Shown one piece after another: positions 8,617-54,544 of a stretch of 64,000 nt of DNA. The notes under the pieces were generated by a model. That model did not search any database and was not told where the DNA came from. It worked only from the letters and a program-made list of their open reading frames with translations. The stretch is taken from the NCBI RefSeq assembly GCF_003334815.1, contig NZ_QOWO01000007.1, one strand, 5' to 3'. The first letter of the stretch is position 1. Every line of letters begins with the position of its first letter. The position numbers and the translations under genes were made by a program. The DNA comes from Escherichia coli (lineage in GTDB: Bacteria > Pseudomonadota > Gammaproteobacteria > Enterobacterales > Enterobacteriaceae).

Positions 8617-9594
8617 CTAAATCTGGTGCTTTTTCAACAACGCGCGGAACTGATGATAAGTTAACCCCAGTAATTCAGCCGCGCGCTTCTGGTTATATTT
8701 CCCTTGTTGCAAACTGAGTTGCAGCAACTCTTTTTCCTGCTGCATCTGAAACTCACGTAAATCCAGCGGCAGTGTTGGAAGCGAGGTGGTTTCTGAAACG
8801 GCGATAGCGTCTTCAGGCGGACGCCGTTTAAAGGGATCAATAATGATGTCATCAAGCGGATAATCGCTGGTGCCGTGGCGATACACTGAACGTTCCACCA
8901 CGTTTTTCAATTCACGAATATTTCCCGGCCAACGATAATTCAGCAATGTTTCTCTGGCGCGCTCCGTAAACCCCGGGAACAGAGGCAGCTTGATTTCCCG
9001 ACACATCTGGATGGCAAAGTATTCTGCCATCAACATTATGTCGCTTTCGCGCTCGCGCAGTGGTGGCAGTTGTACAACATCAAAAGCCAGTCGGTCGAGC
9101 AGGTCAGCGCGAAAAGTGCCTTCATTGACCATCGCCGGGAGATCGGCATTCGTCGCGCATACCAACCGCACATTCACCTGCAATGGCTGGCTGCCGCCAA
9201 CGCGCTCCAGTTCACCGTACTCAATCACGCGCAATAATTTCTCCTGCACCATCATCGGTGCCGTAGCGAGTTCATCAAGAAATAGCGTACCGCCGTCGGC
9301 ACGTTCAAATCTCCCTGGATGACGTTTTTGCGCACCGGTAAACGCCCCCGCTTCGTGACCAAACAGTTCGGAATCCAGCAGATTTTCATTTAACGCCGCG
9401 CAGTTAAGGGAAATAAACGGCCCTTGCCAACGGGAGGAGAGATAATGCAGGCGGCTGGCAATCAGCTCTTTACCGGTGCCGCGTTCGCCGATGATGAGCA
9501 CCGGTTTGTCCAGCGGTGCGAGATGCGAAACCTGTTCCAGCACTTCGAGAAAGCTGTTCGCCTCACCAAGTAAATTATCTTTGTATTCTGCCAT
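8617..9594 (-). CDS. pspF: Sigma54-dependent activator of the psp operon, 325 aa
   Basis: ORF 8617..9609 trimmed to ATG 9594 (MAEYKDNLLGE...); Walker A GERGTGKE and GAFTGA motif present. Confidence 0.93.
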   Translation of the reverse strand: MAEYKDNLLGEANSFLEVLEQVSHLAPLDKPVLIIGERGTGKELIASRLHYLSSRWQGPFISLNCAALNENLLDSELFGHEAGAFTGAQKRHPGRFERADGGTLFLDELATAPMMVQEKLLRVIEYGELERVGGSQPLQVNVRLVCATNADLPAMVNEGTFRADLLDRLAFDVVQLPPLRERESDIMLMAEYFAIQMCREIKLPLFPGFTERARETLLNYRWPGNIRELKNVVERSVYRHGTSDYPLDDIIIDPFKRRPPEDAIAVSETTSLPTLPLDLREFQMQQEKELLQLSLQQGKYNQKRAAELLGLTYHQFRALLKKHQI

Positions 9595-37605: not shown

Positions 37606-37848
37606 TGTTTTATCAGGCTCCTCCAGATAATTGTCGTCATGCCGGAAACCCCTGGCGGGGCTATTTTACCGCGACAATTCATTCAGATCATCAATAGTCA
37701 GGGAAGGAAGTAGCAACATTAGCTAACTAATCAATGCGTTGATTGTAAATCCAGCTAAGAGGTGAGGTTTTCAGAGCAGACAACGGTGAAATGTCATGGT
37801 ATTGTTACGTTTAGGTAACAAGAAATTTGTCTGCACAAGGATTACATC

Positions 37849-40730: not shown

Positions 40731-42257
40731 TTAAGACAAACGTGGGTAAATACCCGGACCTATCGGCAGACCGACAAGATACCACGCCAGCAACATCAGC
40801 AGCCATACCACCAAAAAGATAAGTGGATAGGGCAAGACTAACGAATAGTAAGTACCCAGTTTCGCGTCTGGTTTGTAGCGTTGCAGGAATCCAAGAAACA
40901 GTGGAACAAAAGGAGATACCGGCGCTAAAGGCAATACGGATGAGTCGGCAATACGAAAGAGGATTTGCGCAAATGCCGGGTGAAAGCCAAGTAGCATAAA
41001 CATTGGTACGAAAATGGGGGCAAGAATCGACCAGATTGCGGAACCGCTGGCAATAAACATGCATAAGAAAGAGGAAAGCAACGCCAGACCGACAAACGCC
41101 GGGATGCCGCTAAGCCCTGAACTTTCCAGTATATCGGTCAGCCCCACGGCGATGAATTTCCCCATGTTGCTCCAGTTAAACATGGCGACAAATTGGGCGA
41201 GGGGAAAAACCATCACGATAAATCCCGCCATCTCTTTCATCGGTTCAATCATTAAATGCGGTAAATCCGCCTGACGTCGAATTGTGCGGGTAGCGATGCC
41301 ATAAGCCAGCGAGACAACAAAGAAAAAAAGAATGATCAGTGGCACGATACCTTTAATAAAGGGTGATGGCATCACGGTGTGATTAATCGGATCGCGCAAT
41401 ATCCCGTTTTGCGGGATCACCATCAGCGCAATCGCAGCAATAAAAAGTAGCGATACGACACCTGCTATGCGTAAACCAAAACGCTGACTTTCGGTCAATG
41501 TCTGCAGTTTCTCATCGCTGTTTCCCTGCCATTGACCTAACCGTGGCTCGATGATTTTGTCGGTTATCAGGCCGCCAACAATCGTCAGTACGACTACGGA
41601 GCTGGCCATAAAATACCAGTTATCAATTACACTGACGTGCATTTGCGGATTGAACGCAGCTGCCGCTTCCGTGCTGATCCCCGACAGCAACACGTCGGTT
41701 GTGACAATCAGTAAATTAGCCGTAAAGCCGCAACCTACGCCTGCAATGGCAGCCAGTAAACCTGCAACTGGATGCCTGCCCACCGCCAGAAAAATCAGCG
41801 CACCCATCGGTGGCATGATCACTAACGCCGCATCGGAAGAAATGTGGCTGAAAAAAGCAATAAACAGCACCATATAACTGGCGTAGCGGGCATTAACATG
41901 CGATGCCATTTTAACCATTAGTGCTGGCAGTAAGCCGACGCGCTCCGCCAGACCGGCACCTAAAACCAGCGCCAGGATCGCACCAAGTGGAGCAAAACCG
42001 CTAAAGTTTTTAATAACATTGGGTAAAAACCAGTGTAATCCTTCCACACTGAGCAGGTTTTTCACCACGACCGGCGTACCATCGGTCGGGTTTTTCGCAC
42101 TGACGCCAAAGGCCGACAAAATTGCCGTCGTCACCATGAGTACGATAATCAAATAGATAAAGAGCAGAAAAGGATGGGGAACCTTGTTACCAATTCTTTC
42201 GACCCAGCCATAGAGCTTCCCGGATTGGGAGGACGACGGTATGGATGACATACTCAT
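40731..42257 (-). CDS. abgT: p-Aminobenzoyl-glutamate transporter (AbgT family), 508 aa
   Basis: ORF 40731..42263; start placed at the second ATG (42257), which has better GAGG spacing. Confidence 0.9.
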
Positions 42258-42293
42258 GGGCATTCCTCGGTTGTTGTGTTTGCGTTGTTGTTG

Positions 42294-43739
42294 TTATTTT
42301 AAAGGTGACGGTGTCACGTTTTTCGGGATAGGGCAGTGATACGGTTGCGTGTCCGTTACTTGCTGATGCTCTTGTTGGCATTCTTGCAATAGCCCTGAAT
42401 CAAGGAAGAGATTGACTGTGGTTGCTGCCATAGTTTTCGCCGCCAGCAGCATTCCTTTATGAGCAATAGATGTTCGCCCCTGGCTAACCAGTTGCCACGT
42501 ATGTAGCGGTGTACCGACGGCAAAACAGGGGCTGAAACACTGGGCAACAGGCAGTTTCCAACTGACGTCGCCGACATCAGTCGATGCCGCAAGCACGTTA
42601 TCGGTGGCGGCATATGGAGCGACTTCATTCGCCAGTACCGTTTCACGATGACGTAGTGCAAAAACCTTGCCGTTTTCGCCACCGGTTGCGGCGATATTAT
42701 TCAGACTGTTTTGCCGATCGTTGGAGGTGAGCGTAGCCTGAATTTGTTTCGCAAAAGCCAGTTCTTCGGAGTTCCATTCCGGGGTACCAAAATGGGATAG
42801 GGCCTGGTACATGGCATTTTCTAAGGTGCGATTCGGGAGATAACTGGAACAGGCTTTGTCGAAGCGGCATTCAACCGTGGTTTCGGTCATCAATGCCGCA
42901 CCTTCGGCGATTTTGGCGACCCGATCATAAATATGCTGCACGTCGGTCATTTCGGGGGCGCGGATAAGATAAAGCACTTCTGCCTGCGCCTGGACCACGT
43001 TGGGCGAGATCCCGCCGCTATTTGTGATGGCATAGTGTACGCGCGCTTTTTCAATAATATGTTCGTTGAGGAAGTTGGTGCCAGTGGTCATCAACGTTAC
43101 GGCATCAAGGGCGCTGCGTCCCAAATGAGGGGAATTCGCGGCATGTGCTGCGATCCCTTTAAAGCGCCATGATGCCTGAATGTTTGCCAGCGTGCGGGTA
43201 TTGAACATACCGGCAAAGGCTTCCGGGTGCCAGGTGAGTGCCGCATCCACATCATCAAATACCCCCTCGCGAACCATGAACGTTTTACCCGAGCCGCCTT
43301 CTTCGCCAGGACAACCATAAAAGCGCACCGTGCCGCCTTGCCCATATTGTTCCAGCCATTTCTTGACGGCTATTGCAGCGGCAAAGGCGGCGGTTCCCAG
43401 CAAATTGTGTCCGCAACCGTGACCATTTTCACCGGGCGTCACGGATGTAGGTTGCGCGCAACCTGCTTGCTGACTTAAACCTGCCAGGGCGTCATATTCT
43501 CCCAGCAGGGCGATAACCGGTTTGCCTTGACCAAACGAAGCAATAAAGGCATTTGGGATATTGCCTACGTTGCGGGTAACGGTGAAGCCTGCAGATTCCA
43601 GCGCCGAAGCCAGATGCTCCGCTGACCAGAACTCTTCAAAACGTGTTTCTGGATGATCCCAGATTTGATCGGCAATATCGGTATAACGTTGGCGATCGGC
43701 TTCAATCGCATCGTCGATAAAACGATAGATTTCCTGCAT
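42294..43739 (-). CDS. abgB: p-Aminobenzoyl-glutamate hydrolase subunit B (M20 peptidase family), 481 aa
   Basis: ORF 42294..43739. Confidence 0.93.
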   Translation of the reverse strand: MQEIYRFIDDAIEADRQRYTDIADQIWDHPETRFEEFWSAEHLASALESAGFTVTRNVGNIPNAFIASFGQGKPVIALLGEYDALAGLSQQAGCAQPTSVTPGENGHGCGHNLLGTAAFAAAIAVKKWLEQYGQGGTVRFYGCPGEEGGSGKTFMVREGVFDDVDAALTWHPEAFAGMFNTRTLANIQASWRFKGIAAHAANSPHLGRSALDAVTLMTTGTNFLNEHIIEKARVHYAITNSGGISPNVVQAQAEVLYLIRAPEMTDVQHIYDRVAKIAEGAALMTETTVECRFDKACSSYLPNRTLENAMYQALSHFGTPEWNSEELAFAKQIQATLTSNDRQNSLNNIAATGGENGKVFALRHRETVLANEVAPYAATDNVLAASTDVGDVSWKLPVAQCFSPCFAVGTPLHTWQLVSQGRTSIAHKGMLLAAKTMAATTVNLFLDSGLLQECQQEHQQVTDTQPYHCPIPKNVTPSPLK

Positions 43740-46133: not shown

Positions 46134-46142
46134 AACTGCATA

Positions 46143-46235
46143 AAAAAATAGAGTCTGTCGACATCCGCCAGACTCTACAGTACACACAGCAGTGCATCCG
46201 CGTCTTAAATCCGGCATTGTCTCCTCTGCGCCGGT
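46143..46235 (-). ncRNA. mcaS: Small RNA McaS (IsrA)
   Basis: Minus strand reads ACCGGCGCAGAGGAGACAAUGCCGGAUUUAAGACGCGGAUGCACUGCUGUGUGUACUGUAGAGUCUGGCGGAUGUCGACAGACUCUAUUUUUUU: multiple GGA motifs and an intrinsic terminator; abgR-smrA spacer. Confidence 0.8.
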
Positions 46236-49612: not shown

Positions 49613-49734
49613 GCAGGTGAATGCAACGTCAAGCGATGGGCGTTGCGCTCCATATTGTCTTACTTCCTTTTTTGAATTACTGCATAGCACAATTGATTCG
49701 TACGACGCCGACTTTGATGAGTCGGCTTTTTTTT
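49613..49734 (+). ncRNA. fnrS: FNR-activated small RNA FnrS (about 122 nt)
   Basis: GCAGGUGAAUGCAACGUCAAGCGAUGGGCG... ending in the GCCGACU-uugaug-AGUCGGC hairpin plus a U8 run. Confidence 0.85.
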
Positions 49735-54317: not shown

Positions 54318-54544
54318 TGAATAAATCCTTTAGTTATTTTATTTGCCTTTTATCCCCATTTCGGGGAGTGAAAACATCCTAAAGGAGAAGTTCAGTTAGC
54401 CGATAAATATCATTTGTTACGCCTTAAGTAAAACCTTAATCAAATAATTCCTCTGAAATGATAATAAGTCTGGTGAATGTATCGAAGATAATACATACAA
54501 AATAAAAATTATACTTTTAATTTGCTATACGTTATTCTGCGCGG

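Follow-up and report, generated by a model that had tools for sequence, protein, structure and literature searches.

What purpose does the short stretch separating abgB from abgT serve in Escherichia coli? The junction lies within the 64,000-nt stretch of E. coli DNA analysed here (hereafter, the window). A sequence-only reading had described it as a short (AAC)n tract followed by a CA-rich stretch immediately upstream of the abgT Shine-Dalgarno (SD) sequence, adding that CA-rich tracts can enhance translation and that trinucleotide repeats can vary in length by slippage. Analysis of the junction confirmed both elements. The abgB-abgT spacer comprises 36 nt on the minus strand (42258..42293; CAACAACAACGCAAACACAACAACCGAGGAATGCCC) and reads, from the abgB stop to the abgT start, TAA-CAACAACAAC-GCAAACACAACAAC-C-GAGGA-AUGCCC-AUG. 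The repeat, AACAACAACAAC, matches the window at a single site, 42295..42284 (minus strand); its 5' end sits 2 nt outside the spacer, the leading AA belonging to the abgB stop codon, and the previously assigned 5' end is corrected by these 2 nt. The CA stretch lies directly upstream of the SD, as had been described: GAGGA begins 1 nt past the tract, and the gap between GCAAACACAACAAC and the SD is likewise 1 nt. The coordinates of all features are listed in Table 1. No promoter or terminator was found on the coding strand of the junction, and abgT is therefore probably translated from the abgABT mRNA, with the spacer acting as an intercistronic site. The explanation that we consider best, and hold with moderate confidence, is that the spacer is a translation-control element of abgT, combining an enhancer with a site to which the R1 seed of the Hfq-dependent small RNA GcvB would bind and an (AAC)4 repeat that plausibly recruits Hfq.

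Table 1. Features of the abgB-abgT junction; mRNA positions are relative to the abgT start codon.
Feature	Positions	Strand	Basis and remarks
abgB CDS, p-aminobenzoyl-glutamate hydrolase subunit B	42294..43739	-	ORF list, RefSeq annotation of matching genomes, translation; C-terminus ...NVTPSPLK
abgB stop codon TAA	42294..42296	-	Both A's also belong to (AAC)4, as its first two bases
(AAC)4 tract, mRNA -38..-27	42284..42295	-	Single match; n = 3, 4, 5 in E. coli
(A-R-N)5 run AAUAACAACAACAAC, candidate Hfq distal-face motif	42284..42298	-	Holds an (AAN)4 element as in rpoS; putative Hfq binding
GCAAACACAACAAC, GcvB-complementary core, mRNA -26..-13 (register A)	42270..42283	-	Perfect 14-nt complement of GcvB nt 77-90
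Longer imperfect GcvB pairing, mRNA -38..-12 (register B)	42269..42295	-	GcvB nt 63-87; takes in (AAC)4
Polymorphic position -13, 3' edge of core	42270	-	C in the reference, A or U elsewhere
abgT Shine-Dalgarno GAGGA, -11..-7	42264..42268	-	Sequence; GAGG conserved in orthologous leaders
abgT start AUG as annotated, 508-aa protein MSMSS...	42255..42257	-	RefSeq CDS limits; in frame with abgB across one TAA
abgT CDS, p-aminobenzoyl-glutamate:H+ symporter	40731..42257	-	ORF list, RefSeq annotation

The composition of the leader is extreme. Between positions -41 and -12, 28 of 30 residues are C or A, making this the richest 30-mer on both strands of the 64 kb, and the same interval holds six ACA motifs, the highest count in the window. 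Folding of a 241-nt segment predicts no pairing anywhere in the tract, in the minimum free energy and centroid structures alike. C/A-rich, ACA-containing elements located just 5' of the SD are translation enhancers (Yang et al. 2014, PMC3879156), and the ACA motifs in the GcvB sites of yifK and dppA strongly enhance translation independently of GcvB (PMC3879156); the general claim that CA-rich tracts can enhance translation is thus established experimentally in the literature. The abgT leader presents the features of such an enhancer, namely ACA motifs, predicted single-strandedness and a position close 5' of the SD, and we infer that the spacer doubles as a putative ACA-type translation enhancer.

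Judged from the sequence, the most specific match of the tract, missed by the earlier reading, appears to be its complementarity to GcvB. Using the gcvB sequence of MG1655, with its identity confirmed by Rfam RF00022 (199 bits), we found that all 14 nt of GCAAACACAACAAC are Watson-Crick complementary, without a gap, to GcvB nt 77-90, within the G/U-rich R1 seed. No other sequence on either strand of the window (128 kb in total) complements GcvB over such a length, the runners-up (12 and 11 nt) falling outside R1. Among random 45-nt windows from 1 Mb of enterobacterial DNA, only about 0.07% contain an R1 complement of at least 10 nt. The site contains AACACAAC, corresponding to the CACAACAU / AACACAAC type of R1 core target, and its AACACAACAA segment agrees at 9 of 10 positions with the published GcvB target consensus AACACAACAT, the core of which is CACAACAT (PMC5900567). 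Both registers in which the site can pair (-26..-13 or -38..-12) fall within the -39..+19 footprint quoted in the same source (PMC5900567), and GCAAACACAACAAC has 12 nt in common with the validated yifK/thrP site UGCAAACACAACA (-22..-10). Compared with shuffles of its own leader (-45..-12), the 14-nt E. coli match exceeds the mean of 6.9 nt obtained with mononucleotide shuffles (p = 0.003) and the mean of 8.5 nt obtained with dinucleotide shuffles (p = 0.007). Such composition-controlled p-values are modest (0.003-0.03), any C/A-rich tract tending to match a G/U-rich seed.

Predicted interaction energies place abgT among the validated targets of GcvB. Suboptimal duplexes were trimmed to the sub-helix minimising the sum of hybridisation energy and the opening energies of both RNAs, in an IntaRNA-like manner, and opening energies were checked against constraint folding; a score based on raw RNAduplex energies plus the opening energy of the full, over-extended duplex was dropped, as validated targets scored badly under it too. 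With the trimmed-duplex score, all six validated R1 targets are among the nine best of 56 translation-initiation regions (argT -24.9, gltI -16.7, dppA -14.2, oppA -13.6, yifK/thrP -12.9 and sstT -11.3 kcal/mol). The abgT region scores -18.2 kcal/mol and ranks second of the 56, outscoring five of the six validated targets, with argT alone performing better. The best non-target among the 56 regions reaches -11.7 kcal/mol. The abgT score is matched neither by any of 2,990 random 100-nt windows (minimum -15.2, median -3.1 kcal/mol) nor by any of 440 neighbouring gene starts (minimum -14.9 kcal/mol). The two registers are nearly isoenergetic: the perfect 14-bp helix of register A has a hybridisation energy of -20.1 and a total of -17.0 kcal/mol, and register B (GcvB 63-87 with mRNA -38..-12) a hybridisation energy of -26.0 and a total of -18.2 kcal/mol, with an mRNA opening cost of about 0 kcal/mol at the abgT site. 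The other two cistrons, abgA (-0.2 kcal/mol) and abgB (-1.6 kcal/mol), are without a GcvB site. Joint folding of full-length GcvB with 150 nt of mRNA in RNAcofold kept the R1-junction helix, with a ddG within the range of validated targets, which we take as weak support given that this joint fold is noisy and adds many implausible intermolecular helices. The best-scoring non-targets were pspB (-11.7 kcal/mol) and pspA (-11.6 kcal/mol), near the weakest validated control; the pspA and pspB starts lie at 9080 and 9802 of locus L010, or approximately 9761 and 10483 of the window, and their scores are probably due to chance.

To examine the leader beyond E. coli, we collected 80 abgT loci from other Enterobacterales and scored every species with the E. 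coli GcvB, taking the conservation of R1 from the Rfam consensus and the literature. The orthologous leaders have different sequences, with C/A-rich runs 5' of the SD, and carry perfect R1 complements in differing registers, spread from GcvB 64-75 to 84-94. Leaders in Enterobacter, Leclercia and Lelliottia match GcvB 71-88 over 17-18 nt, those of Klebsiella and Raoultella match GcvB 77-87 over 11 nt, and those of Buttiauxella match GcvB 64-75 over 11-12 nt; the corresponding matches are GCAAACACAA (GcvB 81-90) in Photorhabdus and Xenorhabdus, AATTGCAAACA (GcvB 84-94) in Providencia and TTGCAAACACAA in Pantoea. In the Rfam consensus, GUUgUGAUG and UUGUGUUUGCA are conserved and the intervening 8 nt are an insertion in E. 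coli GcvB, so the 17-18-nt matches assume that Enterobacter GcvB shares this insertion. Complementarity to R1 persists at loci where a gene other than abgB lies upstream. The median energy of the 80 leaders is -14.1 kcal/mol, versus -3.1 kcal/mol for neighbouring genes; 50 of the 80 score -12 kcal/mol or better and 36 score -15 kcal/mol or better, almost all of the Enterobacteriaceae being among these 36. Within the Enterobacteriaceae, 33 of 34 leaders reach -14.5 kcal/mol, the signal in other Enterobacterales being partial. When each leader was compared with its own shuffles, 56% (mononucleotide) and 42% (dinucleotide) attained p ≤ 0.05, against 5% expected; this shuffle-controlled signal is concentrated in the Enterobacteriaceae and weak in the Morganellaceae and some Yersiniaceae. 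On these sequence comparisons, R1 complementarity in abgT leaders appears to exceed what composition explains.

These controls bear directly on a simpler alternative, in which the leader would act solely as an enhancer or standby site promoting 30S loading through protein S1, and the GcvB match would be a by-product of its composition. The window-extreme C/A and ACA content, the fully single-stranded prediction and the capacity of ACA motifs to enhance translation without GcvB (PMC3879156) all agree with this possibility, as do the retention of C/A-richness in orthologues and the finding that shuffled leaders still match R1 over 7-9 nt. It accounts less well for the fact that the R1 pairing of real leaders surpasses that of mono- and dinucleotide shuffles of the same leaders, or for an exact 14-mer within the seed that nearly duplicates the validated yifK site; moreover, yifK, dppA and gltI, that is, all studied SD-adjacent enhancers of this type, are GcvB-regulated. 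We regard an enhancer without GcvB control as rather unlikely, although still the most credible of the alternatives. It is also compatible with the presence of a GcvB site, rather than strictly exclusive of it.

Next to the GcvB-complementary core, on its 5' side, the (AAC)4 repeat and the preceding AAU form an (ARN)5 run; both strands together (128 kb) contain five runs that long, this one included. The distal face of Hfq binds (ARN)n sequences, including the (AAN)4 element in the rpoS mRNA leader (PMC3458560), and by analogy (AAC)n may serve as an Hfq (ARN)n motif. Like the rpoS-type motifs, (AAC)4 is a literal (AAN)4, here extended to (ARN)5, beside an sRNA pairing site; it differs from them in that its role is putative, in its lack of conservation among orthologues and in being paired with GcvB in register B. 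Runs of at least three ARN units are present in 60% of abgT leaders versus 10% of neighbours, a comparison in which composition is a confounder; long ARN runs are not retained by the abgT leaders of genera other than Escherichia.

The variation in repeat number anticipated by the sequence-only reading was borne out by a comparison across 5,426 complete E. coli genomes, in which the length of the tract proved not to be invariant: n = 3, 4 and 5 were all found. Alleles were counted with allele-specific queries of 82-88 nt, the band of at least 99% identity corresponding to an exact match. About 4,200 of the 5,426 genomes carry the junction. By exact allele match, (AAC)4 occurs in 3,616 genomes (about 86% of carriers), comprising 3,002 with C, 600 with A and 14 with U at position -13; (AAC)3 occurs in 260 genomes, and (AAC)5 in one, plus at least two with a single mismatch. 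In the alleles that were read directly, whole AAC units were cleanly gained or lost. The (AAC)3 variant is found on two flanking haplotypes (E9 and O103:H2 versus ETEC1749), and (AAC)5 is seen both with -13C (PD7) and with -13A (ETEC1738). The occurrence of the n = 3 and n = 5 variants on two haplotypes each indicates recurrent slippage, which from these sequences looks confined to 3-5 units. Regarding the junction itself, it is missing in approximately 1,226 of the 5,426 genomes, and five matches were on records labelled as plasmid. In strain HH45 similarity ends about 12 codons into abgT, and the 'AbgT family transporter' CDS annotated there measures 813 nt.

Throughout this variation, the 14-nt core is the same in 11 of 11 directly read E. 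coli junction alleles, save for its -13 edge. The -13A variant, found in about 14% of E. coli genomes, costs approximately 2.6 kcal/mol in predicted GcvB pairing, and -13U keeps a G:U pair with GcvB; all natural alleles score -15.6 kcal/mol or better (-15.6 for -13A and -15.7 for -13U). Changes in repeat number alter the predicted pairing only between -17.0 and -18.2 kcal/mol for n = 2-5 (-17.1 for n = 3 and -18.2 for n = 5). According to this energy model, the (AAC)n polymorphism would be minor, predicted GcvB pairing being little changed by it.

Could the spacer be no more than a neutral, low-complexity sequence, generated by slippage without function and changing in length by drift? The (AAC)n run is Escherichia-specific and variable in length, and it is unusual locally, with 0.02 chance matches to AACAACAACAAC expected per 64-kb window (2 of 100 dinucleotide shuffles contained one), yet roughly one such 12-nt tract is expected by chance, by extrapolation, in a genome of the size of E. 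coli. The repeat, however, is only part of the leader. GcvB complementarity is conserved across genera, C/A-rich R1-complementary leaders being kept despite other sequences and other upstream genes; the core is identical in the 11 alleles save at -13; and no other 30-mer of the 64 kb is as extreme in composition. A functionless spacer is hence improbable in our assessment. The occurrence of n = 3, 4 and 5 in different strains and the recurrence of variants on two haplotypes could also be expected of a contingency repeat, in which (AAC)n slippage would constitute an evolved, high-frequency switch of abgT. Such loci in pathogens resemble the abgT repeat in being short tandem repeats by a translation start with natural length variation. 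In contrast to them, (AAC)n has 3-5 units and one dominant allele (n = 4), lies outside the reading frame and any promoter spacer, with no coding-strand promoter found, and changes by whole triplets with no predicted on/off consequence and near-constant GcvB pairing. It is thus not a long switching tract of the kind that defines classical high-frequency phase variation, and we judge an evolved switch to be very improbable.

Equally improbable is the proposition that another trans-acting factor binds the tract, be it a different sRNA or an RNA-binding protein besides Hfq. The sRNAs that we screened (FnrS, MicC, McaS and GcvB) cover part of the E. coli set, which leaves room for such a factor, but the three encoded in the window, FnrS, MicC and McaS, are complementary to the junction over just 6-7 nt, compared with the 14 nt of GcvB, and no Rfam family matched the junction.

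The closest known counterpart of the abgT site is that of yifK (thrP), where GcvB, by pairing directly upstream of the SD, prevents 30S toeprints and silences the ACA enhancers (PMC3879156). The two targets are near-identical (UGCAAACACAACA in yifK, GCAAACACAACAAC in abgT), address the 3' half of R1 and lie just 5' of the SD of a secondary-transporter gene, with ACA motifs in both. They differ in that the yifK site occupies a primary 5'UTR and the abgT site lies between two cistrons, with the preceding stop codon 11 nt away; in the polymorphic (AAC)n flank and the second, longer register of abgT; and in that yifK is validated and abgT predicted. The dppA, gltI, oppA and argT sites of GcvB R1 (Sharma et al. 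2007, as cited in PMC9299463) resemble abgT in being unstructured and C/A-rich, in lying in or upstream of the ribosome-binding site of amino-acid or peptide uptake genes, and in doubling as translation enhancers, with comparable predicted energies. These are genes for ABC-transporter binding proteins detected by RIL-seq, CLASH and MAPS, whereas the product of abgT is an AbgT-family symporter whose substrate is a folate catabolite, and abgT is in none of the lists checked. The GcvB regulon comprises mostly amino-acid and peptide transporters and also the folate enzyme purU, and it includes intra-operon sites, at hisQ in argT-hisJQMP and at several positions in ilvLXGMEDA (PMC9299463). The hisQ and ilv sites resemble abgT in the discoordinate control of an internal cistron, which for abgABT is predicted. 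Functionally, abgT fits this transporter-dominated regulon, which already has purU and sites within operons.

The compiled table of verified GcvB targets, which has more than 50 entries (PMC9299463), does not list abgT, and neither do the Hfq-CLASH supplementary tables, an inferred sRNA-regulon supplement or a delta-gcvB RNA-seq supplement. Full-text literature searches returned nothing relevant on abgT with GcvB, and none combining GcvB with 'aminobenzoyl'. As a GcvB target, abgT is thus new in every source checked, and there may be an unremarked entry in a RIL-seq, MAPS or CopraRNA table. Expression of the abg operon in laboratory media is poor, and this could hide abgT from such interaction screens.

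Taken together, these results make it fairly probable that GcvB can repress abgT through the predicted R1 site at -26..-13. The mechanism that we favour would operate as follows. Within the polycistronic abgABT mRNA, the spacer would function as a translation-control element of abgT, its single-stranded, ACA-rich leader promoting 30S loading on this cistron. When GcvB is abundant, as in growth with glycine or on peptide-rich media, R1 would pair with -26..-13 or -38..-12, forming a duplex that abuts the SD, masks the enhancer and blocks 30S binding, and AbgT synthesis would be repressed. Repression would be selective for AbgT, leaving abgA and abgB untouched. The (AAC)4 repeat within (ARN)5 would plausibly recruit Hfq via its distal face, and its length would shift by replication slippage within the n = 3-5 range seen in nature. 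Access of the sRNA to the site may meet competition from ribosomes that terminate at the abgB stop codon, 11 nt 5' of the core.

If confirmed, this regulation would widen the GcvB regulon beyond amino-acid and peptide uptake to include import of a folate breakdown product, and it would explain part of the poor expression of abg. It would also provide a natural case of operon-internal sRNA control beside a polymorphic (AAN)n, useful for studies of Hfq-motif length. AbgT-dependent uptake of p-aminobenzoyl-glutamate (PABA-Glu) determines the way in which E. coli exploits folic-acid supplements, and this has consequences for a host (PMC6002978). The advance itself is incremental, adding one more target, under a canonical mechanism, to an sRNA that has more than 50. 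A broader and clearly speculative reading, which we consider unlikely as a whole, would have GcvB, co-regulated with the tetrahydrofolate-dependent glycine-cleavage system, selectively silence abgT, which would link glycine and one-carbon status to PABA-Glu salvage and contribute to the long-noted 'cryptic' character of abg, with the n = 3-5 alleles differing in Hfq recruitment or enhancer strength and thereby tuning AbgT output heritably; any phenotypic effect of repeat number is likewise putative.

Two further features of the junction were considered and rejected. A hairpin that would sequester the SD by pairing it with abgT codons ~10-12 (42208-42272, minus strand) yielded no consensus structure or covariation when 22 orthologues were analysed with RNAalifold; in single-sequence folds from many Enterobacteriaceae, the abgT SD pairs with UCCUC or UUCC about 30 nt into the CDS. 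Likewise, abgB and abgT share a reading frame with a single TAA between them (42255-42296, minus strand), such that readthrough would fuse the two proteins, and all triplet repeat alleles preserve this frame. Readthrough of the abgB stop was rejected, as the frame is not conserved in Enterobacter asburiae, and the shared frame is most likely a coincidence.

Several minor observations concern the surroundings of the junction. On the plus strand, 42305-42317 carries an inverted repeat, GTGACGGTGTCAC followed by GTTTTTCGGG, that is terminator-like, antisense to the 3' end of abgB and the only one nearby; on the mRNA strand, the same repeat folds into a hairpin of 5 bp immediately ahead of the abgB stop codon. 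Identity between the window and approximately 1.36-1.42 Mb of E. coli K-12 MG1655 amounts to 99.96-99.98%, and the site occupied in MG1655 by IS5F (1396044-1397238, between ynaI and ynaJ) is empty in the window, at approximately 37723-37726; the DNA thus derives from a strain closely related to K-12 but distinct from MG1655. The Rfam sRNA genes encoded in the window comprise McaS (46140-46235, minus strand), beside abgR, followed by FnrS (49613-49730, plus strand) and MicC (54542-54662, plus strand), in that order.
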